This document shows positions 2,462-45,529 of a DNA stretch of 64,000 nucleotides, piece by piece. The translations under genes were made by a program, and so were the position numbers. Source of the stretch: Candidatus Saccharibacteria bacterium UBA4387. Lineage in GTDB: Bacteria > Patescibacteriota > Saccharimonadia > Saccharimonadales > Saccharimonadaceae. Position 1 is the first letter of the stretch, and each line of letters opens with the position of its first letter. The stretch is taken from contig DGRN01000010.1 of assembly GCA_002391075.1 (NCBI GenBank), positions 20,738 to 84,737 of the forward strand. The letters are read 5' to 3'. The notes under the pieces were generated by a model. The model saw only the letters and a list, made by a program, of their open reading frames with translations, did no database searches and had not been told where the DNA came from.

Positions 2462-2484
2462 ACCCGCCCCATTACAGGGCGGGT
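2462..2484. terminator. Bidirectional terminator between convergent genes
   Basis: ACCCGCCC-cattaca-GGGCGGGT, with an A-run upstream and a T-rich tract downstream. Confidence 0.6.
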
Positions 2485-2496
2485 ATTTGAGCGGAG

Positions 2497-2868: not shown

Positions 2869-2989
2869 ACAGAACCCCTCCTTTAGTCGTGAACGGATAA
2901 GATGTGCGACGCGCAAGCTGCGCATACCTTTCTATTATATCACAGATTACCAGAAAAGTCAATCCAACCCCATCGACAACAAGCTATGA

Positions 2990-4132
<1,143 letters not shown>

Positions 4133-4181
4133 CCAGGATAACAGCTCCTCTCTCAGAGAGGGGCTTTCTCCTCCTCAATTG

Positions 4182-4190
4182 TGCTATACT
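4182..4190 (+). promoter_or_regulatory. Extended -10 element, leaderless transporter gene
   Basis: TGCTATACT ends 6 nt before ATG 4197. Confidence 0.5.
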
Positions 4191-4196
4191 AAAACC

Positions 4197-5432
4197 ATGA
4201 GCACCGTAAATCACAAAATCGAAGTCGACACCAAAACTTTTATCCGTTTCTGGCTAGTAATCCTAGGTTTTGCTGCCGCCGGCTTCATCTTCTTTAAGGC
4301 TATGACCGGCCTCTTCATTCTCGGCGCCGCCCTCTTTCTCGCCATCGCGCTCTCGCCACTCGTCAACAAACTCGCCGACATCATCCCGGGCGAAAGCCGC
4401 AAACTGCCCATCGCTCTCTCCTATCTCATCGTTGTCGGTTTTCTCGTCGCCTTTGTCGCCATAGTCGCGCCAGTCGTCGTCGACCAATCCATCAAATTCG
4501 CCAAAAACCTGCCCACCATCGTCAACAACACCCCTCTAAACAGCGCCGCCCTCAACGACTTCGGCCAAAACCTCGGCATCCACGATCTCCGCGGCCAAAT
4601 CGTCAATTCTATCCAAAAATACTCCACCGAGTTCGCCAATAACCTCGGCAATCACCTCATGACTTCCATCGGCGCATTCGGCGACTTCATCTCCAAACTC
4701 ATCCTCATTCTTGTCCTCGCGCTCTTCATCCTCATTGAAGGTCCCGACATCCTCCACCAGTTCTGGAGCAACTTCCGCACTAATAACCGCGTCATGCGCG
4801 CCAAACACATTTTCGAACGCATGAGCAAAGTCATCACCAAATACGTCTCCAACGCCATCATGGTCGCACTCATTAATGCATCCGCCACCGCCTGTACGGT
4901 CTTCATTCTGTCGCTCATCTTCAAATTCTCCGCCGACCTCGCTCTGCCTTTCGGCCTTATCACTGGCGCCTTCAGCCTTATCCCAATGTTCGGCTCCATC
5001 ATCGGCGGCGCACTTGTCGCTGTCCTGCTCGCCTTCAACACCATTCCCGCCGGCATCGCCTTCTTCGTATACACTATCATTTATTTGCAAATCGAATCCA
5101 ACTTCATTTCGCCCAAAATCCAAGGCAAAGGCCTCCAGCTGCCCGCTCTCGTCATTCTTTCTTCCGTCACTCTCGGCGTCTATACTTTCGGCCTAGTCGG
5201 CGCCATCATTTCCATTCCTATCGCCGGCTGCATCAAAGTCCTACTCGAAGAATACGGCGACGGCTTCCTTCCGACCGAACACAAAAAACGCACCCGCCGC
5301 AAAGTCCAGTACTTCCTGCCCATCCATCGCCAAACCACCGCCAAAGACATCCAAACCAGCACCGACCAGCTCAACGAAGCCGTTCAATACATGACCACCA
5401 CTCCATCAGACCCCACCAAGCCCAAAAAATAA
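4197..5432 (+). CDS. AI-2E family (PerM/YhhT-like) membrane transporter
   Basis: Start re-picked at MSTVNHKIEV. Track ORF 3852.. overlaps tgt in another frame. Multiple TM helices and a typical AI-2E layout, including GLITGAFSLIPMFGSIIG. Confidence 0.8.
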   Translation: MSTVNHKIEVDTKTFIRFWLVILGFAAAGFIFFKAMTGLFILGAALFLAIALSPLVNKLADIIPGESRKLPIALSYLIVVGFLVAFVAIVAPVVVDQSIKFAKNLPTIVNNTPLNSAALNDFGQNLGIHDLRGQIVNSIQKYSTEFANNLGNHLMTSIGAFGDFISKLILILVLALFILIEGPDILHQFWSNFRTNNRVMRAKHIFERMSKVITKYVSNAIMVALINASATACTVFILSLIFKFSADLALPFGLITGAFSLIPMFGSIIGGALVAVLLAFNTIPAGIAFFVYTIIYLQIESNFISPKIQGKGLQLPALVILSSVTLGVYTFGLVGAIISIPIAGCIKVLLEEYGDGFLPTEHKKRTRRKVQYFLPIHRQTTAKDIQTSTDQLNEAVQYMTTTPSDPTKPKK

Positions 5433-14833: not shown

Positions 14834-16684
14834 CTAATAATCATAGCTATAATCAAATCCGTCGTCATAATCATAGTCGTAACTCGACCCCGAATCATAG
14901 TCATAATCGTAATCATAGTCATAACTCGACCCCGAATCGTAATCATAATCGTAGTCGTAGTCATAATCGTAACTAGAATAACCCGAGTCATAACTACTCG
15001 ACGATGTCCGATAACTTCCGCCACTGGTGCCACCCATTATCGCCATCAAAATCACCAGTATAAAACATATGAACACAATCGTACCGACGAAATTACCACG
15101 ATTCCGCACTCTACTACTTTGCTTTACGGTCGGCCGCACATATCTATTCTTCATTCCGCTCGCCAAGCTTGCCACGTGCGAATAATTTCCGCCCATCGCA
15201 AACCTGCCGCGCTCGCTCAAATTCATCGAGTTGCGTCCCGACGACAGCGAACCAATCGCCCGCGCATCGTTCCGCCCACTAATCTCCGATGTCCACACAC
15301 CATTACGCGAAACGACAAAACGGTCGCTCTTCTTCATATTCTCGATGTGGCTCTCAGTCTCATTTTCGTGCGTATGCCGCTCCGCCCCACCACTCGAACG
15401 CAAAACCGTTTTAGGATAATTTATCTTATACTTTTTCGAAAGCCCACACATCACCATTCCAAACACCCAAATCGGCAGCGAAATCGACGCATACATAATC
15501 ACCAACACGCTCAAAACGGTATGCTTGCCCGCAATCGCCACCACCATCAGCACGATTACCGCAATACAAGAAATCACGAACGCTCGCACAGTCGACTCTA
15601 GTAGCGATTTCTCTTTGTTCTTTTCGGCATTTCCGAGCGGAATATCGCCAACCACCTCACCGGTCCGGCCGTTCATCGCCACATAATAAATCCGCTTATC
15701 ACCCGTCTCTTCCGGCCGCCTGTAGCTAAAAATCCAAACCGGCAAATACGCCGAGCGCCATTTCGTCCCTTTAATCCCCAGATGCTCACGATGCCAATGC
15801 AAACCGCGGTCATATTCCGCAATCGACTCTCGCATTTTCTGCCGCCCAACATCACCCGCCTGCAAAGCCACAACTTCCTTCACCGCCCTCCGGTTCGCGT
15901 CACGTTTCTCACTCGAAAAACCGCGCAAATAGCTCGGGTCCCACGCTACCGCATTCTCCGTATCGAACGGCAAAATCGCATTAATCACATTGTTCGAGTT
16001 TACGAAAGTATCCTGATTTAATCTATTTGTTGAGGACTCAACCGTCAAATCATCAACAAATAAATCAAACTCACGCTTCACCTCATAAGTATCCACCTTA
16101 AACGGCGGATTCTTACTTCCAGACGCCGTCTTTTCACCGTCGCCAAACGCCGTATAGACCGCCCGCACATCCACCACGAAATATGGAAAATAAACACCCT
16201 TCACATGTTCCGGCGTAAAATCACTCTTAAATTCCAGGTTCGCATTACTATACTCAGCGATATACTTTCGCATCCGCTCCACCGCCTCATCGTGCGGAAT
16301 CGAAAACGGCAACACAAAATCCGGCACCGCCCCATTCGGAATCTTATTCTCCAATGTCAGCACATGCCTACACCAGTGGCAATCAACCTGCAAATTCTCG
16401 CTTGCATTAACCACTGCCTCGGCCCCGCAAGACGGGCACTTCAGCGTAATAATGACATCTTCGCTCGGAACGATATCTTCCGCGCCCGCGTCAACTTTTT
16501 CACCATTCAAGGACTCCACGCCACCAAACGCATTATTTTTTTGAGGCTCAAAAACATGCCTACAATAATTGCATTTGAGTTTTCCCTGCGTAGCATCCAA
16601 AGACACGTCGCTAGCCCCACAATTGGGGCAGCGACGTAATTCTACTTCTACTTGCGCATCCGATTCTGGCTTCTTTTTTGCCAT
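14834..16684 (-). CDS. Double zinc-ribbon membrane protein paralogue with Tyr-Asp repeat tail, 616 aa
   Basis: Same architecture and many identical blocks (NGAVPDFVLPF, GVYFPYFVVDV, PFDTENAVAWDP, YLPVW). It has extra TM segments and a C-terminal YDYDYD tail. Confidence 0.75.
   Translation of the reverse strand: MAKKKPESDAQVEVELRRCPNCGASDVSLDATQGKLKCNYCRHVFEPQKNNAFGGVESLNGEKVDAGAEDIVPSEDVIITLKCPSCGAEAVVNASENLQVDCHWCRHVLTLENKIPNGAVPDFVLPFSIPHDEAVERMRKYIAEYSNANLEFKSDFTPEHVKGVYFPYFVVDVRAVYTAFGDGEKTASGSKNPPFKVDTYEVKREFDLFVDDLTVESSTNRLNQDTFVNSNNVINAILPFDTENAVAWDPSYLRGFSSEKRDANRRAVKEVVALQAGDVGRQKMRESIAEYDRGLHWHREHLGIKGTKWRSAYLPVWIFSYRRPEETGDKRIYYVAMNGRTGEVVGDIPLGNAEKNKEKSLLESTVRAFVISCIAVIVLMVVAIAGKHTVLSVLVIMYASISLPIWVFGMVMCGLSKKYKINYPKTVLRSSGGAERHTHENETESHIENMKKSDRFVVSRNGVWTSEISGRNDARAIGSLSSGRNSMNLSERGRFAMGGNYSHVASLASGMKNRYVRPTVKQSSRVRNRGNFVGTIVFICFILVILMAIMGGTSGGSYRTSSSSYDSGYSSYDYDYDYDYDYDSGSSYDYDYDYDYDSGSSYDYDYDDGFDYSYDY
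14837..15004 (-). repeat. Coding low-complexity repeat (YD dipeptides, SGSS spacers), 42-nt register
   Basis: aactcgaccccgaatc occurs at 14881 and 14923. It encodes ...SYDYDYDYDYDYDSGSSYDYDYDYDYDSGSSYDYDYDDGFDYSYDY. Confidence 0.85.
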
Positions 16685-16700
16685 CTATTGCGCTTTCCTT

Positions 16701-18011
16701 TTATTGAGCCGTCGGATCAATTCCGCTTGCACGCATTGCCGCCAAATCATCTTCCGACAATCCGCTCAAATCCTGAGCCGCTGGCGCTGCTGGCGCTTCA
16801 GGGGCTGGAGCTGGAGCGGCCGCTGGCGCTTCAGGAGCCGGTGCAGCCGGAGCGGCCGGAGCTGGAGCAACAGGAGCCGGCCCCGCTGGTGCTGCTGGAG
16901 CAGCCGGCATGCCACCAACTGGAGAAATCAAGCTACCAGTACCGCCCATCTGATTAATTGCCATACCGATACCAAACATACCTTGCGCACCGCCATTTTC
17001 GCCGGCTGCCTTAAAGCCTTGCGCAATCGTAGCCTGCGAGTAAGCCGCACCAACGCGACCGCCGTCCGCAGCCAAAGCCTCGCCAATTGCACCCATCGAT
17101 TCGGCCTGCGCCTGACCTTCGAGCGCGGTTTCGTTGAACTTGTCGATTTTCTCGAGCGAAGCCTGATCCCAGTCAAGGCCACGAGTCTCGATCGAAATAA
17201 TGGACAAACCGTAAAGCGTAGCCCAGTGGAAGCCCTGCTCGACCGACGTATTCATATTCAATACGAAATCCTGCATGCCAGCTTGGATGTCATCAATGCT
17301 CTTACCGCCTCTCGAATACTGCGAAAGTGCCGCACCAATCGAACCAACAAAGCCCGAGAATAACGATTCTTCGACTGGTTGACCGTTCACGCCCATATCT
17401 TTCATGGTATAAACCTTCTTCGAAGTCTGACCAGTAAAGAAGCTCGGATCAACCATATTCTTAACCGCCAAAATTGGATCAACAATCTTCACCGTATAAG
17501 TACCGTTGCAGGTTACCGCCAAGTGAATATTGCGATAACGCGCATCCTGATAGCGAATCGGATTCGTCGTACCGAACTTCAAACCAGCGATTGGACGCAA
17601 GTTAACATAGAACGCCAACTGCTTATTGCTCGGCTGACCACCATACTTAAACTGTTGCCAGCTCTGACCAAACGTCGACGCAAAGAAACCGTCGCCAGCA
17701 AACAAGCTACGAGCTTCCGGCACATTCTCTGTCGTGTAGGTATAACGGCCAGCTTCAGCGATCACTGCCGTAATGCCACCATTTTCAATCAAAACTAACG
17801 CCGTATTCTCTGGCACCTCAAAATTACTGCCATCAGAAATAACATAAGCATCTTCCTGACCATCATTATTCGCACTGCCCTCTTTCTTCATTGGCACCGC
17901 GCGTGCAACAATAGTCTGCCCATCCATCTCAGCAGGTACAGTCATGTATTCTAGCCACTGATTCGCAAAACCAGCCTTGGCGCTATCGATTGCAGCTTTA
18001 ATAAAACCCAT
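16701..18011 (-). CDS. SPFH-domain / virion-core-like protein (COG4260, YdjI-like) with Pro/Ala-rich linker
   Basis: MGFIKAAID..., FGTTNPIRYQD and GTYTVKIVDP match my memory of the family. PAAPAAPAGPAPVAPAPAAPAAPAPEAPAAAPAPAPEAPAAPAA precedes a short C-terminal peptide. GAAGGAG SD. Confidence 0.7.
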   Translation of the reverse strand: MGFIKAAIDSAKAGFANQWLEYMTVPAEMDGQTIVARAVPMKKEGSANNDGQEDAYVISDGSNFEVPENTALVLIENGGITAVIAEAGRYTYTTENVPEARSLFAGDGFFASTFGQSWQQFKYGGQPSNKQLAFYVNLRPIAGLKFGTTNPIRYQDARYRNIHLAVTCNGTYTVKIVDPILAVKNMVDPSFFTGQTSKKVYTMKDMGVNGQPVEESLFSGFVGSIGAALSQYSRGGKSIDDIQAGMQDFVLNMNTSVEQGFHWATLYGLSIISIETRGLDWDQASLEKIDKFNETALEGQAQAESMGAIGEALAADGGRVGAAYSQATIAQGFKAAGENGGAQGMFGIGMAINQMGGTGSLISPVGGMPAAPAAPAGPAPVAPAPAAPAAPAPEAPAAAPAPAPEAPAAPAAQDLSGLSEDDLAAMRASGIDPTAQ

Positions 18012-24864: not shown

Positions 24865-27800
24865 CTACTTCGCAACCACGCCTTCTTCGCCAAAAATCTC
24901 TTTCAGCTCGCCCAACAAAGCATCGTCGCATTCGCACCTAAACGGCAAGCGCATCGCCTTTTTATCCGGCCCAATCACCAAAATCACTTCCGAAATCCCC
25001 GGATACCTGCCGCAACTCGTCTTCAAATCCACCAGCGCCTGCTTATCCGACGGATCCATCACACGAATATACAGCTTTTTCGGCTTCAACGGCACACCAT
25101 TCGCGCCACTGGCCGATGTCGAAAAATGCGTCGTCGTCGAACTGCCTCTACCTCCCCCACCAGAGCGCCTATGCCCACTCGCGCCACTCACATTTTGCGC
25201 CGCCGTCTTGTCGCCGCGCGGCTTCTGCGCCACACCTTTTGTCGGCACTTTCAGCTTCGCTCCAGTCGACTCGTAGTTCTCCAGCTCTTCATCCGTTACC
25301 ACGTCAACTTCTTCGACGTTAATCTTTGCCTCGTCCGTCATATTCCCGTCACGATCCGTCGCATTCACTTTCCCAGTCACCTTCACGACCGTATCGGCCA
25401 CCAGCTTAGCGCCCACCGTCTCGAAAGTTCGCGGAAACACCACAATCTCAATCTCGCGCGTCTTATCCTCGATCTTGACGAAAGCCATCTTCGAGCCACT
25501 CTTCGTAATCAAGGTCCGCACATCCGTAATAATGCCACCTACAATCACCGTCGCGCCATTAATCGCCGGCTTAATTTCCGCAATCGGCATCGTCTGCTCT
25601 TCAAAATACTTATCATATTTATCCAACGGATGCGACGAAATATAAAGCCCCATCAAATCACGCTCCCACAGCAGCTGCTCCTTGTCAGTATACTGCGCTG
25701 GCGCCGGTTTCATCTCTGGCTCCGGAATCTCAGCCACCTTTCCCATCATGCCAAACAAATCCGTCTGCCCGCTCGCCTGATCTTTCTGACATTTGTTCGC
25801 ATAGGCCTGAATCGACTCCAAGTTATACAGCAAATCCGACCGCGAAAAGCCAAAACTATCAAACACGCCGCACTTAATCGAAGATTCCCAACTCTTCTTG
25901 TTAAACTTCGTCGCCGGCACGCGTTTCGCAAAATCAAACAGCGACTTAAACTTACCGTTCTTATCGCGCTCGTCAATCACCTCTTCCGCCAGCGCCTTAC
26001 CCATACCCTTAATCGCCGCCAAACCAAAGCGAATCGTCTTCGTCTGTCCCACGATACCGAAGTCTGCGTAAGATTCATTAATATCCGGACCAAGCACCTT
26101 CATGCCCATGCGCTTACACTCGGTCATCTCAATCGTCAGACGCTCTGTCCAACGCATATCCGACGTCATCAACGCCGCCATATACGCATCTGGATAATGC
26201 ACTTTCAGCCACGCTGTCCAATACGCCACCAAGGCATAGCACGCCGCGTGCGACTTGTTAAAGCAGTAGTTCGCGAACTCCAACAGCTGATCCCAAAAAG
26301 TGTTCGCAATCTCTTCCGTCGCGCCGCCAATCTTCACCGCTCCCTCAATAAACTGCGGCTTCACCTTATTCATCAGGTCAATCTTCTTCTTACCAACCGC
26401 CTTGCGCAACGTATCTGCCTGACCGCCCGTAAATCCGCACCATTCCTTGGACGCCTGCATGAACTGCTCCTGATAAATCAAAATACCATAGGTACTCTTC
26501 AGCGAGTTTTCCAACCCAGGGTGCAAATAAGTCACCGGCTCCTCGCCATGCCGCCGCTTAATAAAGCTCGGAATAAACTGCATCGGCCCCGGACGATAAA
26601 GCGCGTTCATCGCAATCAAATCCGCGAACTCCGTCGGCTGCAGCTCGCGCAAATACTTCTTCATACCGCCAGATTCAAACTGGAACACGCCCGTCGTATC
26701 GCCCCGCTGGAACAGCTTGTAAACTTCCGCATCATCCGTCGGCAAATCATTCATCACAATCGTCTGCCCATACACCTTCTTGATAATGCGCAGCGCCTGC
26801 TGAATCACCGAAAGGTTCGACAAGCCCAAAAAGTCCATCTTCAACAAGCCCAGTTCCTCAACTGTCGGCCCAGGATACTGCGTCGTCAACGGCCCTTTCG
26901 CCGAAACTTCCATCGGCAAAAACTTCACCAAATCATCCGGCGCAATCACCACACCACAGGCATGCACACCATGCCCGCGAATCGTCCCCTCCAAGCGCAT
27001 CGCAAAATCAATCACCTCTTTCGAAGTCGGATTCGTCTCATATTCCTTCTTCAAATCCGGCTCATTCACGATCGCATCTTTCAGCTTCACATGATGTCCC
27101 ATCACCGGATCCGGCACCAGCTTCGCCAGCCTATCCGCCTCCGCATACGGCACCTCCAACACGCGCGCCACATCGCGCACCGCGTTCTTCGCCATCATCT
27201 TACCGAAAGTCACAATATTTCCCACGCGCGGCTTTCCGTATTTGCGCGTACAATATTCAATCACCTCATCGCGCCGGTTATCCTGAATATCCGTATCAAT
27301 ATCCGGCATCGAAATACGGTCCGGGTTCAAGAAACGCTCAAAGAGCAAATCATACTCCAGCGGATTCACATCTGTAATATGAATCGCATACGCCAGCAAA
27401 GCACCAGCCGCCGAACCACGCCCCGGCCCATAAATAATCCCCTGGCCTTTACCCCAGTTAATAAAGTCCTGCACAATCAAGAAGTAGCCATTATAGCCCA
27501 TCTTGTCCACCACCGAAAGCTCATAGTCAATTCGTTCAATCACCTCTGGCGGCAACTTCTCACGAATCTCCTCATTGCTCATTTTCTCGATTTCTTCATC
27601 CGACGCAATCTTATAGCGCCCCGCCAGACCATGAAAAACCATGTGATCCAGATATTCCTTCTCCGACTCCCCATTCGGCGTCGGAAACTTCGGAATCAAA
27701 ATCCGCCCCAACTGAATCGTCACATTGCAACGATCCGCAATCCTCTTCGTATTCAGCACCGCCTCCGGGCAAGTCTTCTGCCACCGCGGCAGCAACTCCT

Positions 27801-28587
27801 CCGGCGGAATCACATTCAACTGAAAATCACTCAGCGACATACGGTTCTGGTCCGAAATCTTACTACCAGTACCAATACACAGCAGCACCTCGTGCACCGG
27901 CTCATCTTCAACCTTCAAATAATGCGCATCGCAAGTTACCACACACGGCAAACCCGACTTTTTCGAATAGTTCATCAACCATTCGTTAATTTTCGTCTGC
28001 ACATCCCAATGCGTCGGCGAATCCGGGTGCCCATGATCCTGCAGCTCCAAATAGAACCTGTCGCCATACACGCTGTGATACCACTCAATCAGCTTCTCCG
28101 CGCGCTCATCATCGCCATTCCGAATCGCATTCGAAATCTCCGAACCTGCACAACCAGACAAGCAAATAACACCCTCGGAATATTCTTCCATAATGCGATG
28201 GTCGATGCGCGGCTTGTAATACTTACCGTTAATCTCCGCCTCAGTCTGCAAGCGACACAAGTTCTCAAAACCTTTATCATTCATCGCCAGCAAAGTAATG
28301 TGATAGCGCACCTTATCATAGGCCGGATCTCTATCTTCCATCCGTCGCGCCGCCACATAGGCCTCCAGGCCCAAAATCGGCTTTATTCCCGCCGCGTCAC
28401 AAGTTTTATACAACTCAATCAAACCAGACATCGTGCCATGGTCCGTCACAGCCACCGCTTCCATGCCTTTCTCTTTCACAAAATCCACCAGCTCATCGAT
28501 TTTCGTCAAACCGTCAAGCAACGAATAGTGTGTGTGATTATGCAAATGCACATAATCATTTGGTTTAAGTTGTACCTCCTCTGCCAT
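24865..28587 (-). CDS. dnaE: DNA polymerase III alpha subunit
   Basis: 1240 aa. PHP domain YVHLHNHTHYSLLDG, the polymerase core, an OB fold and a C-terminal domain after a Gly/Ser/Arg-rich linker. TAAAAT lies 6 nt upstream of the ATG. Confidence 0.95.
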   Translation of the reverse strand: MAEEVQLKPNDYVHLHNHTHYSLLDGLTKIDELVDFVKEKGMEAVAVTDHGTMSGLIELYKTCDAAGIKPILGLEAYVAARRMEDRDPAYDKVRYHITLLAMNDKGFENLCRLQTEAEINGKYYKPRIDHRIMEEYSEGVICLSGCAGSEISNAIRNGDDERAEKLIEWYHSVYGDRFYLELQDHGHPDSPTHWDVQTKINEWLMNYSKKSGLPCVVTCDAHYLKVEDEPVHEVLLCIGTGSKISDQNRMSLSDFQLNVIPPEELLPRWQKTCPEAVLNTKRIADRCNVTIQLGRILIPKFPTPNGESEKEYLDHMVFHGLAGRYKIASDEEIEKMSNEEIREKLPPEVIERIDYELSVVDKMGYNGYFLIVQDFINWGKGQGIIYGPGRGSAAGALLAYAIHITDVNPLEYDLLFERFLNPDRISMPDIDTDIQDNRRDEVIEYCTRKYGKPRVGNIVTFGKMMAKNAVRDVARVLEVPYAEADRLAKLVPDPVMGHHVKLKDAIVNEPDLKKEYETNPTSKEVIDFAMRLEGTIRGHGVHACGVVIAPDDLVKFLPMEVSAKGPLTTQYPGPTVEELGLLKMDFLGLSNLSVIQQALRIIKKVYGQTIVMNDLPTDDAEVYKLFQRGDTTGVFQFESGGMKKYLRELQPTEFADLIAMNALYRPGPMQFIPSFIKRRHGEEPVTYLHPGLENSLKSTYGILIYQEQFMQASKEWCGFTGGQADTLRKAVGKKKIDLMNKVKPQFIEGAVKIGGATEEIANTFWDQLLEFANYCFNKSHAACYALVAYWTAWLKVHYPDAYMAALMTSDMRWTERLTIEMTECKRMGMKVLGPDINESYADFGIVGQTKTIRFGLAAIKGMGKALAEEVIDERDKNGKFKSLFDFAKRVPATKFNKKSWESSIKCGVFDSFGFSRSDLLYNLESIQAYANKCQKDQASGQTDLFGMMGKVAEIPEPEMKPAPAQYTDKEQLLWERDLMGLYISSHPLDKYDKYFEEQTMPIAEIKPAINGATVIVGGIITDVRTLITKSGSKMAFVKIEDKTREIEIVVFPRTFETVGAKLVADTVVKVTGKVNATDRDGNMTDEAKINVEEVDVVTDEELENYESTGAKLKVPTKGVAQKPRGDKTAAQNVSGASGHRRSGGGGRGSSTTTHFSTSASGANGVPLKPKKLYIRVMDPSDKQALVDLKTSCGRYPGISEVILVIGPDKKAMRLPFRCECDDALLGELKEIFGEEGVVAK

Positions 28588-28747
28588 ATATCTATTTTAA
28601 CACTTTCGCCGCAATTCGCTCAACAGATTAAAAACCGAACAAAACCTTAAAAACCGAACACTTTCCACACTTTTCCATCAAAAACTTTTCCACAGGGGTG
28701 TAATAGTTATAACACATTTCCGCAAAAACAAAACAAGCATAAGCCTA

Positions 28748-36555: not shown

Positions 36556-37614
<1,059 letters not shown>

Positions 37615-38846: not shown

Positions 38847-38867
38847 CGAAATCGACGAAGCACAAAA

Positions 38868-38897
38868 ATATCTCCCAACCCGGGAGATATTTTTTTG
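38868..38897. terminator. Bidirectional terminator between convergent operons
   Basis: ATATCTCCC-aaccc-GGGAGATAT, flanked by an A-run and TTTTTTT. Confidence 0.8.
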
Positions 38898-38912: not shown

Positions 38913-41900
38913 CTAATCCAACTCGATCAAGCCTGCCGCAATTAGCGCATTGAACACACCAGGCGTATCTTCACCGCGCAAAATTCGTCGGCGCGCATCA
39001 TCAGTCTGCGCATTCCAGTTATTAATGATCGCCCTCGTAATTCCTAGCACGCTCGCGTCTGGCGCCGCCCCGCCCCTAGTCATCACAGTATTCAGTAAGC
39101 TATCATCAATATCAATGTTCGTCGTCAAGCTATCACTCTTGATTGCCTCAAAGGCCGCAGCAGTCTCAGCTTCCGCTTCTGCTGGAGCCTCGACGACTGG
39201 CACTTCCGTAGCAGTCTCAGCTTCCGTTTCTGCCGGAGTCTCAACGACTGGCACTTCCGTCTCAGCCACCACTTCCTCTTCAGGCAAGACAGCTTCCTCC
39301 TCACCCAAAACTACCGGCTCTTCAGCAGTACCTTCCTCGGCTTCGCCTTCAACTTCGATTTCAGGTGCATTTGACGGCTCCTCAATAATCGGCACACCGG
39401 CGCTATATCTATTGGCCGTAGAGCGGCTTGCCGCCAACTCATTACGTCCGTTCAGACCAAACAGCGGATAATTGAACGTCGATGCTATTGTCGGATCAAC
39501 ATGTTCCGTAACCGTACGCGTCACATTAAAGATGTCTTCCATATTCTGTGTATGCGAGATTATTTCGCTGCCGTCAAATCCATGGCCCGAAGTCGTCGCA
39601 ATCGACGCGATATTTCGCACGCCATTCGAATCAAGCCCCAAATCGACACCCAAATGGAAGCGATCAAAAGCAAAACTCTCCGCCACGCCACGCAAAGTCG
39701 GATCTGCCGAACTCGACATCACGAAGTTACCGCTGGCCTGATCATATGCCGCCGGCAGCAAGAAGCCGGTTCCATTATTTCCATCTATATCATTCGTGCG
39801 CACAACCCAAACCAAACGACCATTCGCCGCTTCTAGCTTTGGATCAATCGTCATATTACTATTGAATGGATTATTACGTAACCGCGCAAACCATTTGTCC
39901 GTTTCTGTAAAGAAGACGTCTTTTTCGCTCAAATCATATTCGGCAGTACCGTTATTTAGCCAGTTTTCATCGCCAATATGAATCTGCTCTGAACGTTGCG
40001 ACACGTAATCGCCGAGCGTCACATCCGTAAATGTGCCATCCGGACGTTGCCCAACCTGCACCATCTTGTAATCTGGATGTTGCTGCAAAATCTGCTGAGC
40101 CTCGTTCCTTGTCACGCCAGTGCGATAATTCGCCACGTGCGAGATGTCCGCCCCGCCAGATTCAAGCGGTCGAATAAACGCGCCGACGCCATTCCAGCCC
40201 TCAGCTCGCGCTCGTTCAATCCTTGCAAAAGTACCTTCAAGAATCGTATGGCTTGCACCATCTGTATCTTTTACGCCGCGCAAACGATCAATCACGCCCG
40301 TCATATTCGGATCAAACGCCGCCCGAATCTCAGACGCAACCGTACCGAGCGCGAATGTCGTTGCTGCCGCCTTCACGCCAGCTCGACGCGCCATCTTGCG
40401 GCGCAACTTACACGCCAGCTTGTCTTTCTCATCGATACTTTCCTCAAGTGCATGCAACGTGTTCGCGCCCTCGCCAATCGTGCTGCGCAACGACTGCACA
40501 TCAACGCCATTATCGCTCATTATTACTTCAGCTCTCGCCAAAGCAATATCATACCTCAAACGCTCTTCCGGAATATTCTCTGGATGGTCGTTCGAATACG
40601 CAATCAAATCCACGTTTCGATCATCGCTCAACTCTCGCGCAAAATACATCGCTGAGAAAAGGCCCTTCAAACCGTCTTTTTCCGCATCCGTAATCGTGCC
40701 ATCACGCATCTTATTCAGCAAACCATTCATACTGTCTGTCGCGTCGCTAGCGTCGATCATATCATACGTGGCTTTATACAACTCACGATTCTTCGCGTAT
40801 CTCCGACCCGTCTCCGTCTCGCGCACATTCATTCCGCGCGCCAAATCGCGACGCATCTTCGTAATATCTTCCTGTGCTCTATGATTTTCTTTCACCCCCG
40901 CAATCATACCGCTAGCCAATACCGAAGCTGGGAATACGACCTTCAAAGCTCTTTGCACTACGCCATTCGACGAACTTTCCCCGCCAAACAACAAAGCACC
41001 CGCGACGCCAGTGGCCGCCGTCAGCGCACCCGCCGGCACAAAACGCCCCACCTTGCTTCGCTTCAGCTTTTCAATCACCTCATCACACTTACTCTTGTGA
41101 ATTTCCGTCCGAATATTGCTGCGCGTTTCCGCATTAACAATCGCAAAGCCCTTCATCAAGCGCTCGATGCCGTCCGCATGCTTATCACAATCAGACATCG
41201 CGTCATATTGCATTTTCGCGGCTTCCGCCATCGCAAAGAAGTTATTCGTCATTACTTCTGCGTTCGCATTTGCATTTGGGCAAATCTCACGCAAGTGATT
41301 CACCTCGCCCAGAAATGCCGCTCTGTCCGCAATTTCACCCTTCGCATAGCGTTGCACAATGTCGCGCATCCCCACCGCATAATTCACTTTTTCCAAATCA
41401 GTGGTTTCTTGCTCATCTTGTCCCGGCAAACGCTCGTAAACATGCAGCTCGCCATCGTCACCACGATGCACGCTATAAGACGCAAACTTTTCACCGACTT
41501 TCGAGTGAATCAAAGAATCATAGGCTTGCTCAGTATGGCGCGCCACAAAATCATACTTCATTGTCTCAGTCGCAGAGGCCGCCGTCCAATCGCGCTCTAG
41601 CAAATTTCGCCACTTCGTAATCTTTATATCTGCCAAAGCATTACGACGCTCGTCGTCCGACAAATTCGGATCATCATAAATCTCATTTGCCTTCTTAATC
41701 GCCTCAAACGCCTGCTTTTCATAAGAAACCTTAAAAGCCTCGCGCAGCAAATTACCAATGAATCTCTTACGCAAGCCCCGCCCAATACGACTAAACAATC
41801 CGTTCTTATTTTCATCGCCTTCGATACGCTCGCGCAACATTTCTTCCGAAATCTCTTTCGCTCTCGTGTGCGCATCGCTTTCACGATCCATATCGACCAA

Positions 41901-42989
41901 AACTATTGGCGACAACGCTTCAAACGCGCCTTGCTCTACCTCTTCTTCGGATTCCTCAGATTCAGATTCAGCCGTCTGATGCCTATCAAAGTTTACCACC
42001 CCATTCTCATCGACCGCCAAGTTACCTTCAGCAAGGGGTACTACCGCTTGCTCTTCAGCTTCGGCCGCAGCAAATTCATAACCAAGCATCGGCACATCAA
42101 TCGACGGCATCGTCGGCACATCGATTGATGGCATCGTCGGTACGTCAATTGACGGCATCTCAGGAAGCACTTGTATACCATCGTTAGCATCAATATTTTT
42201 TTCAGGCTCAACCGAAACATCTTCCTCGGCTAGCGGTTCAAGCGCAATATCGTCCATCTGAACCTTCGGCACCTCAATCGACGGCATCTCATCAGGGCGC
42301 ATATACCGCCTAATGAACTTCTTTCGCAGTCCAGCCAAAGCCTCTCTATCTACCTCAGGCGCCGCATCAGGAAAATTCGGGTCGCCATCCATCACGAACA
42401 CCGCCCGCTTCACCATTTTGTCGCGACCATAATCCGGCCGCTTCATTTGCGACAACATCTGCCCCGCCAATTTCCCCTCATCAGTGTCGTCATTTTTCGC
42501 CTCATCTTCTAGCAGCGAAACAAATTCATCGGTTGCAAAAATCTTCGAATTATCAAATTCGAATCCATATTTGCCTTGACGGCTCAAATCTTCCCGCGAA
42601 TACGGTTTGTTCCTATCTTTCTCACGCAAAATCCGCCGAATCTCGCGCAACTTATCGTATTTATTCTCGACAGTTTCCGCTTTTTTCGGCTCTAATAACC
42701 CTACGCGTCTAAAATAATCGTGAATCGATTCCCCGTCATTCACCGGATTTTTCGAAATCGTTTCACTAACTCGACTCATATCCATCGCCAAAACTTTTGC
42801 CACATCGCTATCTGCGCCTGGATACAAATCAGGAATCTTCGCACTACCACCTTCCGGATTTAGCTTGGAGGCAGCCTTAGCCGCCTCCTCGCCAACTTTC
42901 TTAGCACGTTCGCTATCTACTCCTTCCGGTACGGCAATCGATTCCATTCCAACCGATACGGATTCCATTTTCGGACCATTCGGCTTCAT
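38913..42989 (-). CDS. Large orphan protein (1358 aa) with central hydrophobic hairpin, MPSIDVP repeats and acidic C-terminal repeats
   Basis: ATG 42989 lies 8 nt after GGGAGG. The track start is GTG 42998. There is no signal peptide. Hydrophobic pair FVPAGALTAATGVAGALLFGG / ALKVVFPASVLASGMIAGV. Third gene of the operon. Confidence 0.8.
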   Translation of the reverse strand: MKPNGPKMESVSVGMESIAVPEGVDSERAKKVGEEAAKAASKLNPEGGSAKIPDLYPGADSDVAKVLAMDMSRVSETISKNPVNDGESIHDYFRRVGLLEPKKAETVENKYDKLREIRRILREKDRNKPYSREDLSRQGKYGFEFDNSKIFATDEFVSLLEDEAKNDDTDEGKLAGQMLSQMKRPDYGRDKMVKRAVFVMDGDPNFPDAAPEVDREALAGLRKKFIRRYMRPDEMPSIEVPKVQMDDIALEPLAEEDVSVEPEKNIDANDGIQVLPEMPSIDVPTMPSIDVPTMPSIDVPMLGYEFAAAEAEEQAVVPLAEGNLAVDENGVVNFDRHQTAESESEESEEEVEQGAFEALSPIVLVDMDRESDAHTRAKEISEEMLRERIEGDENKNGLFSRIGRGLRKRFIGNLLREAFKVSYEKQAFEAIKKANEIYDDPNLSDDERRNALADIKITKWRNLLERDWTAASATETMKYDFVARHTEQAYDSLIHSKVGEKFASYSVHRGDDGELHVYERLPGQDEQETTDLEKVNYAVGMRDIVQRYAKGEIADRAAFLGEVNHLREICPNANANAEVMTNNFFAMAEAAKMQYDAMSDCDKHADGIERLMKGFAIVNAETRSNIRTEIHKSKCDEVIEKLKRSKVGRFVPAGALTAATGVAGALLFGGESSSNGVVQRALKVVFPASVLASGMIAGVKENHRAQEDITKMRRDLARGMNVRETETGRRYAKNRELYKATYDMIDASDATDSMNGLLNKMRDGTITDAEKDGLKGLFSAMYFARELSDDRNVDLIAYSNDHPENIPEERLRYDIALARAEVIMSDNGVDVQSLRSTIGEGANTLHALEESIDEKDKLACKLRRKMARRAGVKAAATTFALGTVASEIRAAFDPNMTGVIDRLRGVKDTDGASHTILEGTFARIERARAEGWNGVGAFIRPLESGGADISHVANYRTGVTRNEAQQILQQHPDYKMVQVGQRPDGTFTDVTLGDYVSQRSEQIHIGDENWLNNGTAEYDLSEKDVFFTETDKWFARLRNNPFNSNMTIDPKLEAANGRLVWVVRTNDIDGNNGTGFLLPAAYDQASGNFVMSSSADPTLRGVAESFAFDRFHLGVDLGLDSNGVRNIASIATTSGHGFDGSEIISHTQNMEDIFNVTRTVTEHVDPTIASTFNYPLFGLNGRNELAASRSTANRYSAGVPIIEEPSNAPEIEVEGEAEEGTAEEPVVLGEEEAVLPEEEVVAETEVPVVETPAETEAETATEVPVVEAPAEAEAETAAAFEAIKSDSLTTNIDIDDSLLNTVMTRGGAAPDASVLGITRAIINNWNAQTDDARRRILRGEDTPGVFNALIAAGLIELD
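39160..39261 (-). repeat. 51-nt tandem duplication inside the CDS
   Basis: Units 39160-39210 and 39211-39261 are nearly identical. They encode TEVPVVE[AT]PAE[AT]EAETA. Confidence 0.85.
42087..42158 (-). repeat. 24-nt tandem repeat x3 encoding MPSIDVP[TM]
   Basis: ATGCCnTCnATnGAnGTnCCGACG three times, differing only at synonymous positions. Confidence 0.85.
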
Positions 42990-43013
42990 GTCTATCACCT
43001 CCCAATCTAGTTA

Positions 43014-45182
43014 TTAAACAGCTCTCTCAATGCTATCCGCAGCGCCGCTCAAAGCCTCACGATCGCCGCTGGTCAAAACGTCATTCGCATTCGACTCAAC
43101 ATACTTTGCAACAAACTCACTACGCAATTTTGATAGAGCGTCTTTATCAACCTCGCGCATAGCCCCATTACTATTCATTACGAATTCCGCGCGGTCAACC
43201 ATTCTCTTGCGACCATACGCGCCAAAATCGTCGCCACTTCCGGCGTTATCAATCTTCATAATCTGCAACATTTGCGCAGCAAGCTTACCATCGCTCGAGG
43301 CCGTATCAGCCGCACGTTCCTGTAGAATCTTCAAGAATTCATCGGTGCTAAAGATCTTTGAGTTGTCATAAGTAAACGAACCATCCGCACGGCGAACAAC
43401 CAAATCATCTAACTTGTACTTCTTTGTAGTCTCAGTTTCCGCCGATCCAGCAGCCGGTTTTTCAGCTTTCGGAGCTTCTACTACTGAAGTCTTAATTTCT
43501 GGCACTTTCGCCACTGGCACCACCGGCACCTCTGGTACCTTTGCCACCGGAGTATCTGCGACTAACACTTCCGGCTTAGTCGCATCTACTGTCGGAACTT
43601 CTGTCGCAGGCGCCACAGTAGCGCTGCTTACAGATGGCTTTTCTTCCGCGGCCGCAATTTTTGCCACGAGCTCGTCTGTTTGCGCCTGTTCATCAAGCGC
43701 GTCGGCGTCTTCTTCGGCTTTTCTACCGTTGCGAATTCTTTCAATTAAGCCCTTCACGAAGCCAGCACCACGGCGAAGCAAACGTCCCGGCAAAGATTCT
43801 GCAATCTTACCCGCCAAGCTCTTCAAACGCTCGCGCAAAGAAGTCTCAGGTTCAACCTTAGTCGCAGTGCCTTCAGCATTATCTTCGCTACTCTCGGTCG
43901 CCGAGCCAGCCTTAGTCTTCTCTAAGTAATCACGCAATTCCGTATCACTCATCTTATTCAAGCGGAACATGCTGATATCTGCACCAAGCTCTTCCAACTC
44001 TTTATATGCGCCCTCGCGACTAAATTCAGCTTCCTTAGATTCCGAAGTATTATTATCTACTTCGACACTTCCGGCGCCACCTTCAGTCTTACTGGCCGAC
44101 CTATCTGCCGCCTCTGACACGAAACTTACCAAAGGCTCTCTATACATACCGGTATCGTCTTTCAAGGCATCGCGAATCGTATCGAAATGCTCGTCAAACT
44201 CGGCCCTATCAGCATTAGCCGTCTTCGCGATAGGTGTAGGCAAAGGCTCCGAGTATCTACCAGTATCGTCTTTCAAGGCATCGCGAATCGTATCAAAGTT
44301 CTCATCGAACTTACCTTCCTCAGTCGCGCCGCCTTCAATATCTTTCTCGATTACTTCCCTGATTTCCTCAGAAGCGCTCGTTATCGACGCTACATACGCC
44401 GAATACGCATCCTGAATCTTCCTAGACTTAACCTCGTCCCGCTTAAGAATCCCAAGACCGCGCTCACCACTTCTGCGCGCCAACAACTCTTCTACGCTCC
44501 TGCGCCCAGCATTGAAACCATACTTCTTATGTAGAGCTTTCTTGTTCATGCTCAACAATTGCTGCACGAAATCGGCATTATCAAACCAATCTTTCGGCAA
44601 TTCAGCAGATTCTGCGTCTTCAGCACCAGTCTCAACATCACCTTCCGACGACGGAACATCAATCGAAGGCATCTCTGCAACCGGCTTCTTAACTGGAGCC
44701 TCTTGCTGAACATCTTCAAAAGCCTCACCCGCTTTCACGCGACGGATCAATTCACTTTTTAGTTTATCAAGCGGAGCTCTATCAACTTCGGCTTCCGCAG
44801 TTGGGAAATTCGGATCACCTTCCATTACAAACTTCGCACGAGCTACCATTCTGTCGTGGCCGTAATCCGGACGATCCATTTGCGAAACCATCTGAGCAGC
44901 CAACTTTCCATCACTCGATGCCGTATCGGCCGCGCGCTCGCGAAGCAAATCCTCAAACGCTTTCGTACTAAACAATTTCGCATTATCATAGCGCACATTG
45001 CCATTAGCGTCAGTACTCGTAAACTCAGAAATATCCAAACGGCGTTTACCTTGCGGTACTTCCGGCAATGCTTTTACTGTTTCTTGCTTGGCGCCACCAA
45101 ACGGAATATTCTGCAACTCAGCTACGCCTGGGTCGAGATTTGCGCCACCTTGCTCTGCATTGTTTTTAAGTCCTTCAGACAT
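43014..45182 (-). CDS. Orphan protein (722 aa) carrying two copies of the domain shared with the downstream 1358-aa protein
   Basis: AGGAGG SD. No signal peptide or TM. Acidic and helical. An internal duplicate FDE[HN]FDTIRDALKDDTG.Y.EPL. An MPSIDVP motif at aa 171-177. Confidence 0.8.
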   Translation of the reverse strand: MSEGLKNNAEQGGANLDPGVAELQNIPFGGAKQETVKALPEVPQGKRRLDISEFTSTDANGNVRYDNAKLFSTKAFEDLLRERAADTASSDGKLAAQMVSQMDRPDYGHDRMVARAKFVMEGDPNFPTAEAEVDRAPLDKLKSELIRRVKAGEAFEDVQQEAPVKKPVAEMPSIDVPSSEGDVETGAEDAESAELPKDWFDNADFVQQLLSMNKKALHKKYGFNAGRRSVEELLARRSGERGLGILKRDEVKSRKIQDAYSAYVASITSASEEIREVIEKDIEGGATEEGKFDENFDTIRDALKDDTGRYSEPLPTPIAKTANADRAEFDEHFDTIRDALKDDTGMYREPLVSFVSEAADRSASKTEGGAGSVEVDNNTSESKEAEFSREGAYKELEELGADISMFRLNKMSDTELRDYLEKTKAGSATESSEDNAEGTATKVEPETSLRERLKSLAGKIAESLPGRLLRRGAGFVKGLIERIRNGRKAEEDADALDEQAQTDELVAKIAAAEEKPSVSSATVAPATEVPTVDATKPEVLVADTPVAKVPEVPVVPVAKVPEIKTSVVEAPKAEKPAAGSAETETTKKYKLDDLVVRRADGSFTYDNSKIFSTDEFLKILQERAADTASSDGKLAAQMLQIMKIDNAGSGDDFGAYGRKRMVDRAEFVMNSNGAMREVDKDALSKLRSEFVAKYVESNANDVLTSGDREALSGAADSIERAV

Positions 45183-45190
45183 GAAACCTC

Positions 45191-45529
45191 CTAAGCCGCA
45201 ACCGCCGCAGCGTTAGCCGCATTAACTTTATCTTGACCAATATATAGCGCACGGAACTGCAACATTGTCTTCAGCGCAACGTCCTGCAAATCCACGCCGC
45301 TCTGTGCCATGAATTCCGTAACCTGCTCATCACCAAAATTCGGATCATCTAACTTCTGCGACAGCTCAACCGCCTTCTCTTCAGGAAGAGCGTAAATCGC
45401 CGCAGTATCAATTTGGTCGAGCAAACGCTGCGTCAAATCAGCTTTCAACTGCGCCCGCACATCTGCGTCTAGCGACGTATAACCCTTCTCATTAATTATT
45501 TGGTCGATAAATTGCTCGACATTTTCCAT
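45191..45529 (-). CDS. Small acidic helical protein (112 aa), first gene of the orphan operon
   Basis: Start re-picked at MENVEQFIDQII. The ALPEEKAVEL segment recalls small CPR helical proteins of unknown function (possibly DUF5663; this is from memory only). Confidence 0.6.
   Translation of the reverse strand: MENVEQFIDQIINEKGYTSLDADVRAQLKADLTQRLLDQIDTAAIYALPEEKAVELSQKLDDPNFGDEQVTEFMAQSGVDLQDVALKTMLQFRALYIGQDKVNAANAAAVAA

Follow-up and report, generated by a model that had tools for sequence, protein, structure and literature searches.

A two-gene module conserved across the Saccharibacteria, here joined by an additional middle gene, and its possible role as a membrane scaffold with a small partner

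Three minus-strand genes, here called A, B and C, lie in a 64,000-nucleotide stretch of contig DGRN01000010.1 from Candidatus Saccharibacteria bacterium UBA4387 (the window). The locus is best read as this genome's form of a module of two genes that is conserved across the Saccharibacteria, to which a middle gene has been added. The conserved pair is the small gene A and the giant gene C, and we tentatively favor, over a secreted effector, a scaffold with a housekeeping role that is anchored in the membrane and served by its own small partner. The original prediction, made from the sequence alone, described an orphan operon and a candidate for an undescribed system. "Orphan" does not apply to A or C, both of which belong to large families. 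"Undescribed" is supported, as sequence and structure searches placed none of the three proteins in a characterized family: A, B and C gave no significant match in Pfam, NCBIfam, PHROGs, PADLOC or PDB sequences, and a Foldseek search with a model of the C core gave no match at E<=1e-3 in PDB or BFVD. A signal peptide is absent as predicted, judging only by inspection of the N-termini and by hydropathy.

All three genes are real ORFs, of 112, 722 and 1358 amino acids, tightly packed as follows:

45191..45529, minus strand: gene A, an ORF for an acidic, all-helical protein that lacks TM segments, the divergent DUF5663-like partner of the giant
43014..45182, minus strand: gene B, an ORF for an acidic protein that lacks both TM segments and a signal peptide, the lineage-specific middle gene
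38913..42989, minus strand: gene C, an ORF read from ATG, the giant protein of a large uncharacterized Saccharibacteria/Patescibacteria family
38861..38897, no strand assigned: bidirectional terminator-like hairpin (inverted repeat I3) between C and a convergent FtsX gene

Eight nucleotides separate A from B, as first noted, and the stop codon of A is overlapped by the Shine-Dalgarno sequence of B, AGGAGG. The second gap had been given as 15 nt, which holds only for a GTG start of C at 42998 (1361 amino acids). Because that GTG sits in the Shine-Dalgarno sequence of C, GGGAGGTG, we prefer the ATG (1358 amino acids), and the spacing is then 24 nt. Both large genes do have the strong Shine-Dalgarno sequences claimed for them. 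The bidirectional terminator is likewise borne out, by a 16-nt stem of 94% complementarity, by an RNA fold of -24.7 kcal/mol (z = -3.9, with 0 of 200 shuffles as good), and by A and U runs that flank the hairpin on both sides.

How widespread is the module? The C family numbers 449 cluster representatives (50% identity clusters) at E<=1e-3 and 303 at <=1e-10, and the region conserved in the 449 includes the hydrophobic hairpin described below. Almost all are from Saccharibacteria/Saccharimonadales; the others are a Spechtbacterales contig and two that carry the label "Patescibacteria group". Of 154 proteins, 141 are matched by the family HMM over the whole core. This core, of about 750-840 residues, occurs across the Saccharibacteria and in a few other Patescibacteria, about 750 residues being 20-47% identical class-wide, and complete giants that consist of the core only (825-863 amino acids) exist. 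An A-like ORF is found directly upstream of the giant, no more than about 25 nt from its start or overlapping it, in 30 of 30 loci with upstream DNA, a family sample biased by a genome scan that used one narrow motif; the same adjacency is seen in loci L001, L003, L005, L038, L039, L042 and L043. The linkage of A to the giant is strict, which agrees with the proposal that the small gene at the head of the operon encodes a partner dedicated to it. The pair resides in at least three neighborhoods, tsaD/DegT...FtsX, S1-IF2...fmt/def and S1...SufBCD; in the window, tsaD and ValRS are its housekeeping neighbors. The ancestral gene order reads S1-IF2-(A-like)-giant-small-DUF5663-fmt(-)-def(-). Of the supposed co-conservation of three genes, the part concerning A and C holds everywhere, but B is confined to the window and one sister lineage.

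The AF2 model of A has five to six helices (pLDDT 78). About 20 close homologues were found, and alignment with canonical DUF5663 proteins by hhalign (95.6%, E 1.2e-8) indicates that A is a divergent DUF5663 protein. Beside the DUF5663 affinity there is a weak trigger-factor-C-like one, and weak affinities of this kind would suit a chaperone or an adaptor. We picture A as a cytoplasmic DUF5663-like protein of about 100 residues whose gene would be translationally coupled to the next one downstream, and which would bind C as the giant's dedicated holdase or as a stoichiometric subunit.

The extra gene B shares a domain and peptide motifs with C:

44703..45011, minus strand: B copy 1 of the shared ~100-aa domain (B residues ~58-160; BLASTP, alignment A7)
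43092..43439, minus strand: B copy 2 of the shared domain (B residues ~582-697; BLASTP, alignment A7)
42294..42623, minus strand: C copy of the shared domain (C residues ~123-232), within a lineage-specific N-terminal extension
42084..42288, minus strand: MPSIDVP/MPSIEVP peptide repeats in C (direct repeat family D3, five copies including one in B)
44130..44311, minus strand: tandem 37-aa repeat in B (FDENFDTIRDALKDDTG.Y.EPL), two copies (direct repeat D5)

The three copies of the domain that the original prediction counted, two in B and one in C, are recovered by BLASTP, which aligns B65-212 with C145-278 at 44% identity (3e-27) and B582-695 with C123-230 at 42% (3e-19). The MPSIDVP motifs noticed in both proteins are also real, in MPSIDVP and MPSIEVP forms, the fifth D3 copy lying in B at 44646-44673. 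The D5 repeat of B is 71 nt long, with 83% identity and a spacing of 111 nt. B has a single counterpart, B38, the middle gene (871 aa) of sister locus L038, with 36-38% identity in two short segments; searches of 150 family members, of other loci and of JGI metagenomes gave no further relative. The shared domain of C is absent from other family members and is remotely related to its L038 equivalent (hhalign E 1.3e-4, 20% identity). Within one genome, the domain of B or B38 and that of the giant are 42-52% identical; between the window and L038, A is 88% identical and C 41%, and the shared domain only 20%. B may be a third soluble protein that was inserted between A and C in the window lineage and its sister, and it might dock on, or co-assemble with, the N-terminus of C by way of this domain.

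Downstream of its N-terminal extension, C is organized as follows:

39405..41927, minus strand: conserved family core (C residues 355-1195; local HMM, alignment A1, AF2 model)
40893..41042, minus strand: Gly/Ala-rich hydrophobic hairpin (C residues 650-670 and 681-699), a probable membrane anchor (Kyte-Doolittle hydropathy, KD, 1.7)
40314..40373, minus strand: third hydrophobic helix (C residues ~873-892), after a basic KLRRK patch and with a conserved QE
39495..40181, minus strand: beta-rich domain (C residues ~937-1165; AF2 secondary structure, conserved columns in alignments A1 and A4)
39150..39392, minus strand: acidic E/A/T/V/P low-complexity linker (C residues ~1200-1280; direct repeats D2, D6 and D8)
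38916..39149, minus strand: C-terminal ~80-aa domain (C residues 1281-1358), common to a subset of family members

The core (AF2 pLDDT 81.5, pTM 0.67) runs from a helical region through the hydrophobic hairpin, a second helical region and the third hydrophobic helix to the beta-rich domain, which carries conserved W..NGT...DGNEL and LATxVG motifs. The description of the large proteins as helical holds for the N-terminal two-thirds of C, but residues ~937-1165 are predicted to be rich in beta structure. The linker contains 51-nt tandem repeats and has a net charge of -31 per 100 residues, and the C-terminal domain matches the C-termini of family members P0022, P0023, P0027 and P0031 by phmmer. 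The central pair of hydrophobic helices on which the original prediction dwelt is real: its position and hydrophobicity are kept in 21 of 21 aligned members, and it is flanked by conserved motifs, ..ARxxVRTEAHR.. and ..KERNRVxxDRA... All three hydrophobic segments of the core are conserved and have K/R-rich flanks, and the moderate hydropathy (KD 1.0-2.1) suggests that C is anchored in the membrane by the hairpin.

On which side of the membrane does the rest of the giant lie? The third helix may be either transmembrane or membrane-proximal. It forms, with its basic patch, part of one 50-residue helix in the model, and the surrounding K+R count (7.1 before versus 1.7 after) would fit an N-in/C-out protein. 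One might then imagine an envelope-spanning receptor or adhesin that crosses the membrane three times, so that the parts beyond the third helix (beta-rich domain, acidic or Pro/Thr-rich linker, C-terminal domain) are displayed on the surface, for instance for contact with the host or wall, with A and B acting on its cytoplasmic part. The domain after the third helix is beta-rich, and the low-complexity E/P/T-rich linkers that come next are of a kind typical for surface proteins. Such a topology, however, conflicts with the cytoplasm-type C-terminal fusions of relatives. Tails of more than 400 residues occur in 64 of 154 members, 60 of these 64 having a DAD motif; about 40% of relatives continue past the beta domain into a GT-A-like tail, an assignment for which a profile search against PDB gave no match and for which the recurrent Pfam matches, from GT2-clan families only, are all sub-threshold. 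Two relatives run into a Ser/Thr kinase domain (Pkinase, P0161 at 2e-26 and P0164 at 1e-13). GT-A-like and kinase domains need cytoplasmic nucleotide substrates, and P0164 has no hydrophobic segment between the core and its tail domains. The third helix is, moreover, only moderately hydrophobic (KD 1.1-1.9) and holds the conserved Gln-Glu, and we regard the surface reading as rather unlikely.

The scaffold reading that we prefer is argued from architecture and conservation. The giant would be constitutive, probably essential, and held in the cytoplasmic membrane by its Gly/Ala-rich hairpin, where it would hold variable modules: at the N-terminus every lineage has repeats or domains, and at the C-terminus about 40% of relatives have GT-A-like or kinase tails. 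In the window genome the C-terminal module would be the short domain only. The "novel envelope scaffold" offered earlier as an alternative comes close to this, with the scaffold role itself still conjectural. An essential or housekeeping role is suggested by Southlakia epibionticum, whose genes SEML1_0159-0165 match the ancestral context by gene order. SEML1_0161 (767 aa, hypothetical) and SEML1_0162 were scored GD/ES/ES by Tn-seq, that is, a growth defect and then essential at later time points (PMC10633639 Tables S1/S2). SEML1_0161 is the counterpart of C by position only, and its locus has no A-like gene upstream. The module may belong, as an essential and hitherto undescribed component, to the machinery by which these ultra-small bacteria make or use their envelope.

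The original prediction leaned instead toward a secreted or host-directed effector pair. The hairpin would insert in a host membrane, A would maintain C (and perhaps B) in a state fit for export, and the variable GT-A-like or kinase tails would be delivered cargo. The small acidic helical gene directly upstream, the weak chaperone-like (trigger-factor C) signals of A, the bilobed hydrophobic pair, the lineage-to-lineage variation of both extensions and the likeness of some tails to known bacterial toxins and effectors all speak for it. The fit is nevertheless poor, and we think this improbable, because the 750-aa core is class-conserved and encoded by a single gene in housekeeping synteny (S1, IF-2, fmt/def; tsaD, ValRS), because no signal peptide or recognizable secretion motif is present, because no secretion genes, T4SS and T4P included, adjoin A-C in the window, and because the fusions are of cytoplasmic type. 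There is also no immunity-like gene, and the GT-A-like tail is widely conserved (60 of 154) and not polymorphic. Essentiality of the Southlakia positional counterpart in co-culture is compatible with an effector but more typical of core machinery.

We give a similarly small chance to a membrane channel, in which the small-xxx-small (Gly/Ala/Ser) hairpin would oligomerize to a pore with invariant charged residues (RTEAHR, KERNRV..DRA, QE) at both membrane edges, or to a remodelling protein whose hairpin shapes or tethers membranes, like hairpin-anchored dynamin-like or flotillin-type proteins. The conserved Gly/Ala-rich hairpin, with nearly invariant polar residues grouped at its ends and large helical domains on both sides, would suit such a role, but Pfam and PDB gave no sign of a GTPase, SPFH or channel family and Foldseek no similar fold, the AhlB and VirB6-type matches being noise (E ~3, TM-scores <0.2). 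A prophage remnant encoding a tail-assembly chaperone and a tape measure protein, brought to mind by the order of a small acidic gene and then a very long helical protein whose middle carries hydrophobic helices, and by several tape measure proteins among the BFVD matches (E>=0.1, TM-scores <=0.1), is effectively refuted by the lack of any PHROGs match or tblastn match in 50,697 phage records, by the housekeeping flanks and by the fixed chromosomal position of the pair across a bacterial class.

Finally, genes A-C lie on the G-rich strand, and the Ala/Glu/Asp/Val/Gly-rich composition of their proteins is due in part to this extreme strand bias.

The interval 38913-45529 is filled by three co-directional minus-strand ORFs, here called A, B and C, and a terminator-like hairpin lies beyond the last of them.

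45191-45529, minus strand: A, an ORF of 112 aa, pI 4.1
43014-45182, minus strand: B, an ORF of 722 aa, pI 4.8
38913-42989, minus strand: C, the "giant", an ORF of 1358 aa, pI 4.7
38861-38897, between C and the convergent FtsX gene: terminator-like hairpin of 16 bp, with A and U runs on both sides

A and B are separated by 8 nt, and the AGGAGG of B overlaps the stop codon of A. The ATG of C lies 7 nt after its Shine-Dalgarno sequence, GGGAGGTG. Because the alternative GTG start of C at 42998 falls within that sequence, the gap between B and C is 24 nt, not the 15 nt of the original prediction. The A-B and B-C junctions point to coupled translation. The hairpin folds far better than shuffled sequences (z -3.9). 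Neighbouring genes are of the housekeeping kind, with tsaD, a DegT-type aminotransferase gene and ValRS on one side and a MacB/FtsX ABC transporter on the other.

Do these genes form an orphan operon, as was originally proposed? They are not orphans: C belongs to a large family, and about 20 close homologues were found for A. With C residues 100-1190 as query, an index-free search finds 449 cluster representatives at E<=1e-3, 303 of them at <=1e-10, and the members are mostly proteins of 800-2100 aa whose common region is centred on a hydrophobic hairpin. The analysis rests on this search; a word-indexed homology search of C was swamped by low-complexity words and recovered only two members, P0001 and P0171. 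Look-ups of the clusters yielded no family names. A local HMM detects a core of some 750 positions (C aa 355-1195) over its full length in 141 of 154 proteins, the N- and C-terminal extensions vary widely, and there are complete giants of 825-863 aa that consist of the core only. C scores 889 bits (E 5e-268) against the HMM of the core, a value that is partly circular, as C is among the 12 sequences from which the HMM was built; independent support for membership comes from C's own phmmer search, which recovers the family. The core motifs ARxxVRTEAHR, KERNRVxxDRA, SD..DLIxYS, KDxxFxKLRRKR and NGT...DGNEL are nearly invariant in the alignments A1 (the C core), A3 and A4. When one genome per GTDB species was scanned with a single motif, 31 loci were found, a lower bound and a biased sample, nearly all of them from Saccharibacteria/Saccharimonadales of rumen, soil, groundwater and lakes. 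The 31 include a Spechtbacterales (Minisyncoccia) contig, two loci that carry the label "Patescibacteria group", and two short contigs that are binned elsewhere, probably by mistake.

The expectation that the proteins would fall in no characterised family has held. A, B and C gave nothing significant in scans with Pfam, NCBIfam, PHROGs and PADLOC (for the PADLOC models, no match at E<=0.1), and PDB sequence and profile searches likewise found no significant match. We detect no relation to a characterised family or a solved fold, and the nearest named relative is itself a DUF. What appeared to be an orphan operon now stands as a family with defined features: the giant, whose core is modelled with confidence and matches nothing in PDB or BFVD, is strictly paired with a DUF5663-type partner. 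The A-giant module is conserved and wholly uncharacterised, with the caveat that Patescibacteria hold many families of this kind.

The linkage of A to the giant is strict. In each of the 30 genome loci whose sequence reaches upstream of the giant, an A-like ORF (called length 99-165 aa) ends no more than about 25 nt from the start of the giant, or overlaps it, and the same adjacency is seen in seven further metagenomic loci. In the window and in its sister locus L038, one of the seven, the rule holds, but B stands between A and the giant. The pair is intact in at least three neighbourhoods: tsaD/DegT...FtsX, as in the window; S1-IF-2...fmt/def; and S1...SufBCD. In one syntenic relative, L041, ORF calling splits the interval from FemAB to the A-like gene (1984-4665) into some ten tiny ORFs (34-112 aa); pseudogenisation or poor assembly may explain this break-up where tsaD is expected.

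What kind of protein is A? By profile, A-like proteins align with DUF5663 (PF18908), a Patescibacteria-enriched family of small helical proteins of unknown function, whose canonical genes often adjoin the giant in other lineages. The diverse A-like alignment A10 matches the canonical alignment A8 by hhalign with a probability of 95.6% (E 1.2e-8, 69 columns), over about 70 N-terminal residues; A8 comprises proteins homologous to L015:10006-10449, which itself scores 64 bits against PF18908. The same comparison with the low-diversity A-like alignment A6 was negative. For A itself Pfam gives no match at E<=1, to DUF5663 or to any other family, weak matches to DUF5663 occur in 6 of its 20 close homologues (best 7e-4), and A-like proteins fall short of the PF18908 gathering threshold of 23.7 bits, that of L015 scoring 20.3 bits. 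A conserved FR.LYLG C-terminus distinguishes A-like proteins from the canonical consensus (A8), which lacks it. The match names a relative of A and gives no mechanism, because DUF5663 is itself without known function; literature searches for DUF5663 and for SEML1_0161-0163, genes of Southlakia epibionticum, found no paper discussing them.

A lead on how A might work comes from chaperones. Like A, the C-terminal domain of trigger factor, the SurA N-domain and Spy/CpxP-type modules are small, all-helical and acidic, and A-like proteins recurrently but weakly match trigger factor residues ~250-310. None of these matches is significant: TIGR00115 hits A at E 0.044 (12.6 bits, cut-off 180), Trigger_C (PF05698) matches 3 of 20 members below significance (best 0.0086), and PDB profile matches of the A-like set lie at E 0.26-1.2, those to the trigger factor structures 1t11/1w26 at 0.26-1.1. 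The AF2 model of A has 5-6 helices (pLDDT 78), and Foldseek with this model against PDB gave only E>=1.3 and no trigger factor match. For the DUF5663 protein SEML1_0163, a trigger-factor-C protein is listed among the Foldseek matches, and SEML1_0163 is also listed with an LTXXQ-family ECOD domain (PMC10633639). The likeness to trigger factor and chaperones hints at how A might act and does not assign it to a family.

Small genes also occur on the other side of the giant. In L013-L017, L020, L025, L032 and other loci there are often two downstream of it, the first of an acidic, helical type of ~100-136 aa without a Pfam match, and the other a canonical DUF5663 gene (1.5e-17). A comparison of A with the acidic downstream gene gave no signal of relation. 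Upstream of the A-like gene, L027 and L031 encode proteins of 480 and 536 aa into which a DUF5663-like segment has been fused.

In C, two hydrophobic helices lie side by side, at 650-670 and 681-699 (Kyte-Doolittle hydropathy, KD, about 1.7), and there is a weaker third at ~873-892; hydropathy finds no such helices in A or B. The bilobed central pair that had been noticed in C is therefore real by this measure, and all three segments are conserved in position across the family. By hydropathy, the family means for the hairpin helices are KD 1.3 and 1.5 (0.75-2.1 per sequence). An AF2 model of the C core, made from an alignment of 65 full-length homologues, has a mean pLDDT of 81.5 and a pTM of 0.67. 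At the N-terminal side it begins with a helical region, in which there are two small beta hairpins, followed by the hydrophobic hairpin (loop pLDDT <50) and another helical region; next come one helix of 50 residues, which carries a basic KLRRK patch and the third hydrophobic stretch, and finally a beta-rich domain with very long strands. Foldseek of the core against PDB and BFVD found nothing at E<=1e-3, and the best TM-scores were <=0.1 over mismatched helices.

How would the giant sit in the membrane? Lys and Arg together number 4.7 before helix 1, 5.3 after helix 2, 7.1 before helix 3 and 1.7 after helix 3. By the positive-inside rule this distribution reads as N-in, a hairpin, and the third helix out, and it fits a surface receptor or adhesin with three membrane passes. 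Such a topology is at odds with the C-terminal tails of relatives. Tails of more than 400 aa are found in 64 of 154 relatives, 60 of the 64 have a DAD motif, and those inspected show the GT-A-type pattern IPV..NIY...ILLxVN...NDADxxG. The only recurrent Pfam matches in the tails are to GT2-clan families, all sub-threshold (best 1.1e-4); a profile search of the tails against PDB gave no match, and the C of the window has no such tail. P0161 (2e-26) and P0164 (1e-13) are relatives with a C-terminal protein kinase domain, and in P0164 there is no hydrophobic segment between the core and the tail domains. Nucleotide-dependent domains such as GT-A and kinase domains are normally cytoplasmic, which favours a giant that would lie wholly on the cytoplasmic side, anchored by its hairpin. 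Surface display is still a serious rival topology; the receptor or adhesin itself we judge rather unlikely. In P0161 (1835 aa) and P0164 (2097 aa) a GT-A-like region precedes the terminal Ser/Thr kinase domain, and the catalytic-loop motif of P0164 is degenerate (HTDYNLSN), so this one may be a pseudokinase.

A possible counterpart of the giant exists in Southlakia epibionticum. In loci of the Microsaccharimonas type the gene order is S1, IF-2, A-like gene, giant, an acidic gene of ~110 aa and a canonical DUF5663 gene, followed by fmt and def on the opposite strand. In S. epibionticum ML1 (Wang et al., Cell 2023), SEML1_0159 is S1, SEML1_0160 is IF-2, SEML1_0161 is a 767-aa hypothetical gene, SEML1_0162 and SEML1_0163 are DUF5663-type genes, and SEML1_0164 and SEML1_0165 are fmt and def on the opposite strand (PMC10633639 Tables S1/S2). 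This order matches the ancestral context of the giant, although SEML1_0161 has only 767 aa and an upstream A-like gene is absent; the pair of the window has relocated to the tsaD-FtsX site. Tn-seq calls for SEML1_0161 and SEML1_0162 are GD/ES/ES (growth defect, then essential), i.e. essential, and SEML1_0162 and SEML1_0163 are in core, Patescibacteria-enriched families (PMC10633639). SEML1_0161 is a candidate essential counterpart of the giant by gene order alone. If it is homologous, the A-giant pair can be tested in an existing model, the one that is genetically tractable.

What, then, might the module do? We tentatively prefer, with a little less than even confidence, a giant that would act as a hairpin-anchored scaffold whose variable ends bring other activities to the membrane, with A as a holdase or subunit of the giant and B docking through a domain of ~100 aa that it shares with C. 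The demonstrated part of this scaffold reading is its anatomy only. A bolder version, which we regard as doubtful, is that the A-giant pair would be an essential machine of Saccharibacteria and a few other Patescibacteria, built on an unseen fold: a hairpin-anchored organiser, held by its DUF5663 partner, that positions modules at the membrane (glycosyltransferases, kinases or, as with B here, lineage-specific ones) for building the envelope or a host contact zone. If true, it would give DUF5663 its first functional context. The pair in any case offers a handle on this Patescibacteria-enriched family, in a large and mostly uncultivated part of bacterial diversity where much of the essential gene set is without known function. 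A module that organises envelope synthesis or host contact would bear on the way in which ultra-small epibionts live on a host.

The original prediction offered, as speculation, a secreted or host-directed effector pair with its chaperone, or a novel envelope scaffold. Chlamydial Inc proteins and T3SS translocators with class II chaperones likewise have two hydrophobic helices of ~20 aa and a short loop in a large protein, and in effector- or translocator-chaperone pairs a small acidic helical protein is likewise encoded just upstream. In contrast to such pairs, A and C have no T3SS context and no CesT or TPR chaperone match, the core of the giant is conserved class-wide in housekeeping synteny, and relatives carry enzyme fusions of a cytoplasmic type. 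Pfam and NCBIfam place none of the three proteins in a chaperone or effector family, and the neighbours (tsaD, DegT, ValRS, MacB/FtsX) include no secretion-system genes. A constitutive module fits better than an effector, because the core is deeply conserved, the giant is a single gene in a housekeeping context, its partner is strictly linked and essentiality is probable; a secreted, membrane-inserting effector with its chaperone is improbable. A channel or membrane-remodelling protein is, in our estimation, just as improbable. A prophage remnant can practically be dismissed: a phage tape measure protein and its tail assembly chaperone also present a small acidic gene before a long helical protein with central hydrophobic segments, but PHROGs, BFVD and phage tblastn lend no support, the flanks are housekeeping and no phage genes are nearby. 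The Pam pilus operon, recently described in CPR bacteria, is unrelated, since all Pam components carry signal peptides.

B is clade-specific, being found only in the window and in L038, a locus of the same synteny in which A is 88% and C 41% identical to those of the window. The middle protein of L038 and B are alike only over two short stretches (36-38%). B and C have in common MPSIDVP repeats and the domain of ~100 aa, which B carries twice and C once (BLAST E 3e-27 and 3e-19; 50-52% identity in a three-way alignment). Between the middle protein and the N-terminus of its own giant, the domain is 42-52% identical in the window and 48% in L038; between the two genomes it is barely recognisable (20% identity, hhalign E 1.3e-4). 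This pattern points to one of two histories: sequence copied or converted again and again between B and C, or a homotypic contact under co-evolution. Searches for relatives of B or of the domain elsewhere, JGI metagenome contigs included, found none.

A different repeat, of ~55 aa in tandem (EKSREEML.EL....AK.W.....SDEELK.LY), is common in the N-termini of other giants (26 proteins at E<1e-3). One to five copies lie just before the core in L001, L002, L003, L007, L011, L012 and many other family members, and the C of the window has none. That B is a split-off N-terminal extension of other giants is unsupported, B and its L038 counterpart matching the repeat only at E ~0.5.

The window as a whole (1-64000) shows an extreme strand asymmetry, with a GC skew of -0.2 to -0.5 in every 2-kb bin and a third-codon-position skew of -0.68 in plus-strand genes and +0.41 (sense) in minus-strand genes. 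The plus strand is C-rich whichever way genes run, and therefore GNN codons (Ala, Glu, Asp, Val, Gly) are inflated in minus-strand genes such as B and C, and long shadow ORFs occur. At 24865-28650 two ORFs, each of more than 1100 aa, overlap on opposite strands. The minus-strand ORF (24865-28587, 1240 aa), which starts MAEEVQLKPNDYVHLHNHTHYSLLDG, resembles real minus-strand genes in its codon-position profile and by eye looks like a DNA polymerase III alpha (PHP-domain) gene; the plus-strand ORF (25126-28650), with 16% Arg and no Pfam match, is a shadow ORF. The MacB-type ABC ATPase at 36556-37614 (plus strand) has a low-complexity C-terminal tail of ~110 aa, rich in Lys, Pro, Glu and Thr, consistent with a C/A-rich coding strand. 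At 14834-18011 (minus strand) a 436-aa SPFH/Band_7_1 protein adjoins a 616-aa protein with N-terminal zinc-ribbon-like matches and then a 492-aa protein without a family. The 1998-aa protein encoded at 5778-11774 (minus strand) has three Cna_B domains near its C-terminus (6.8e-33) and is probably a large surface adhesin.
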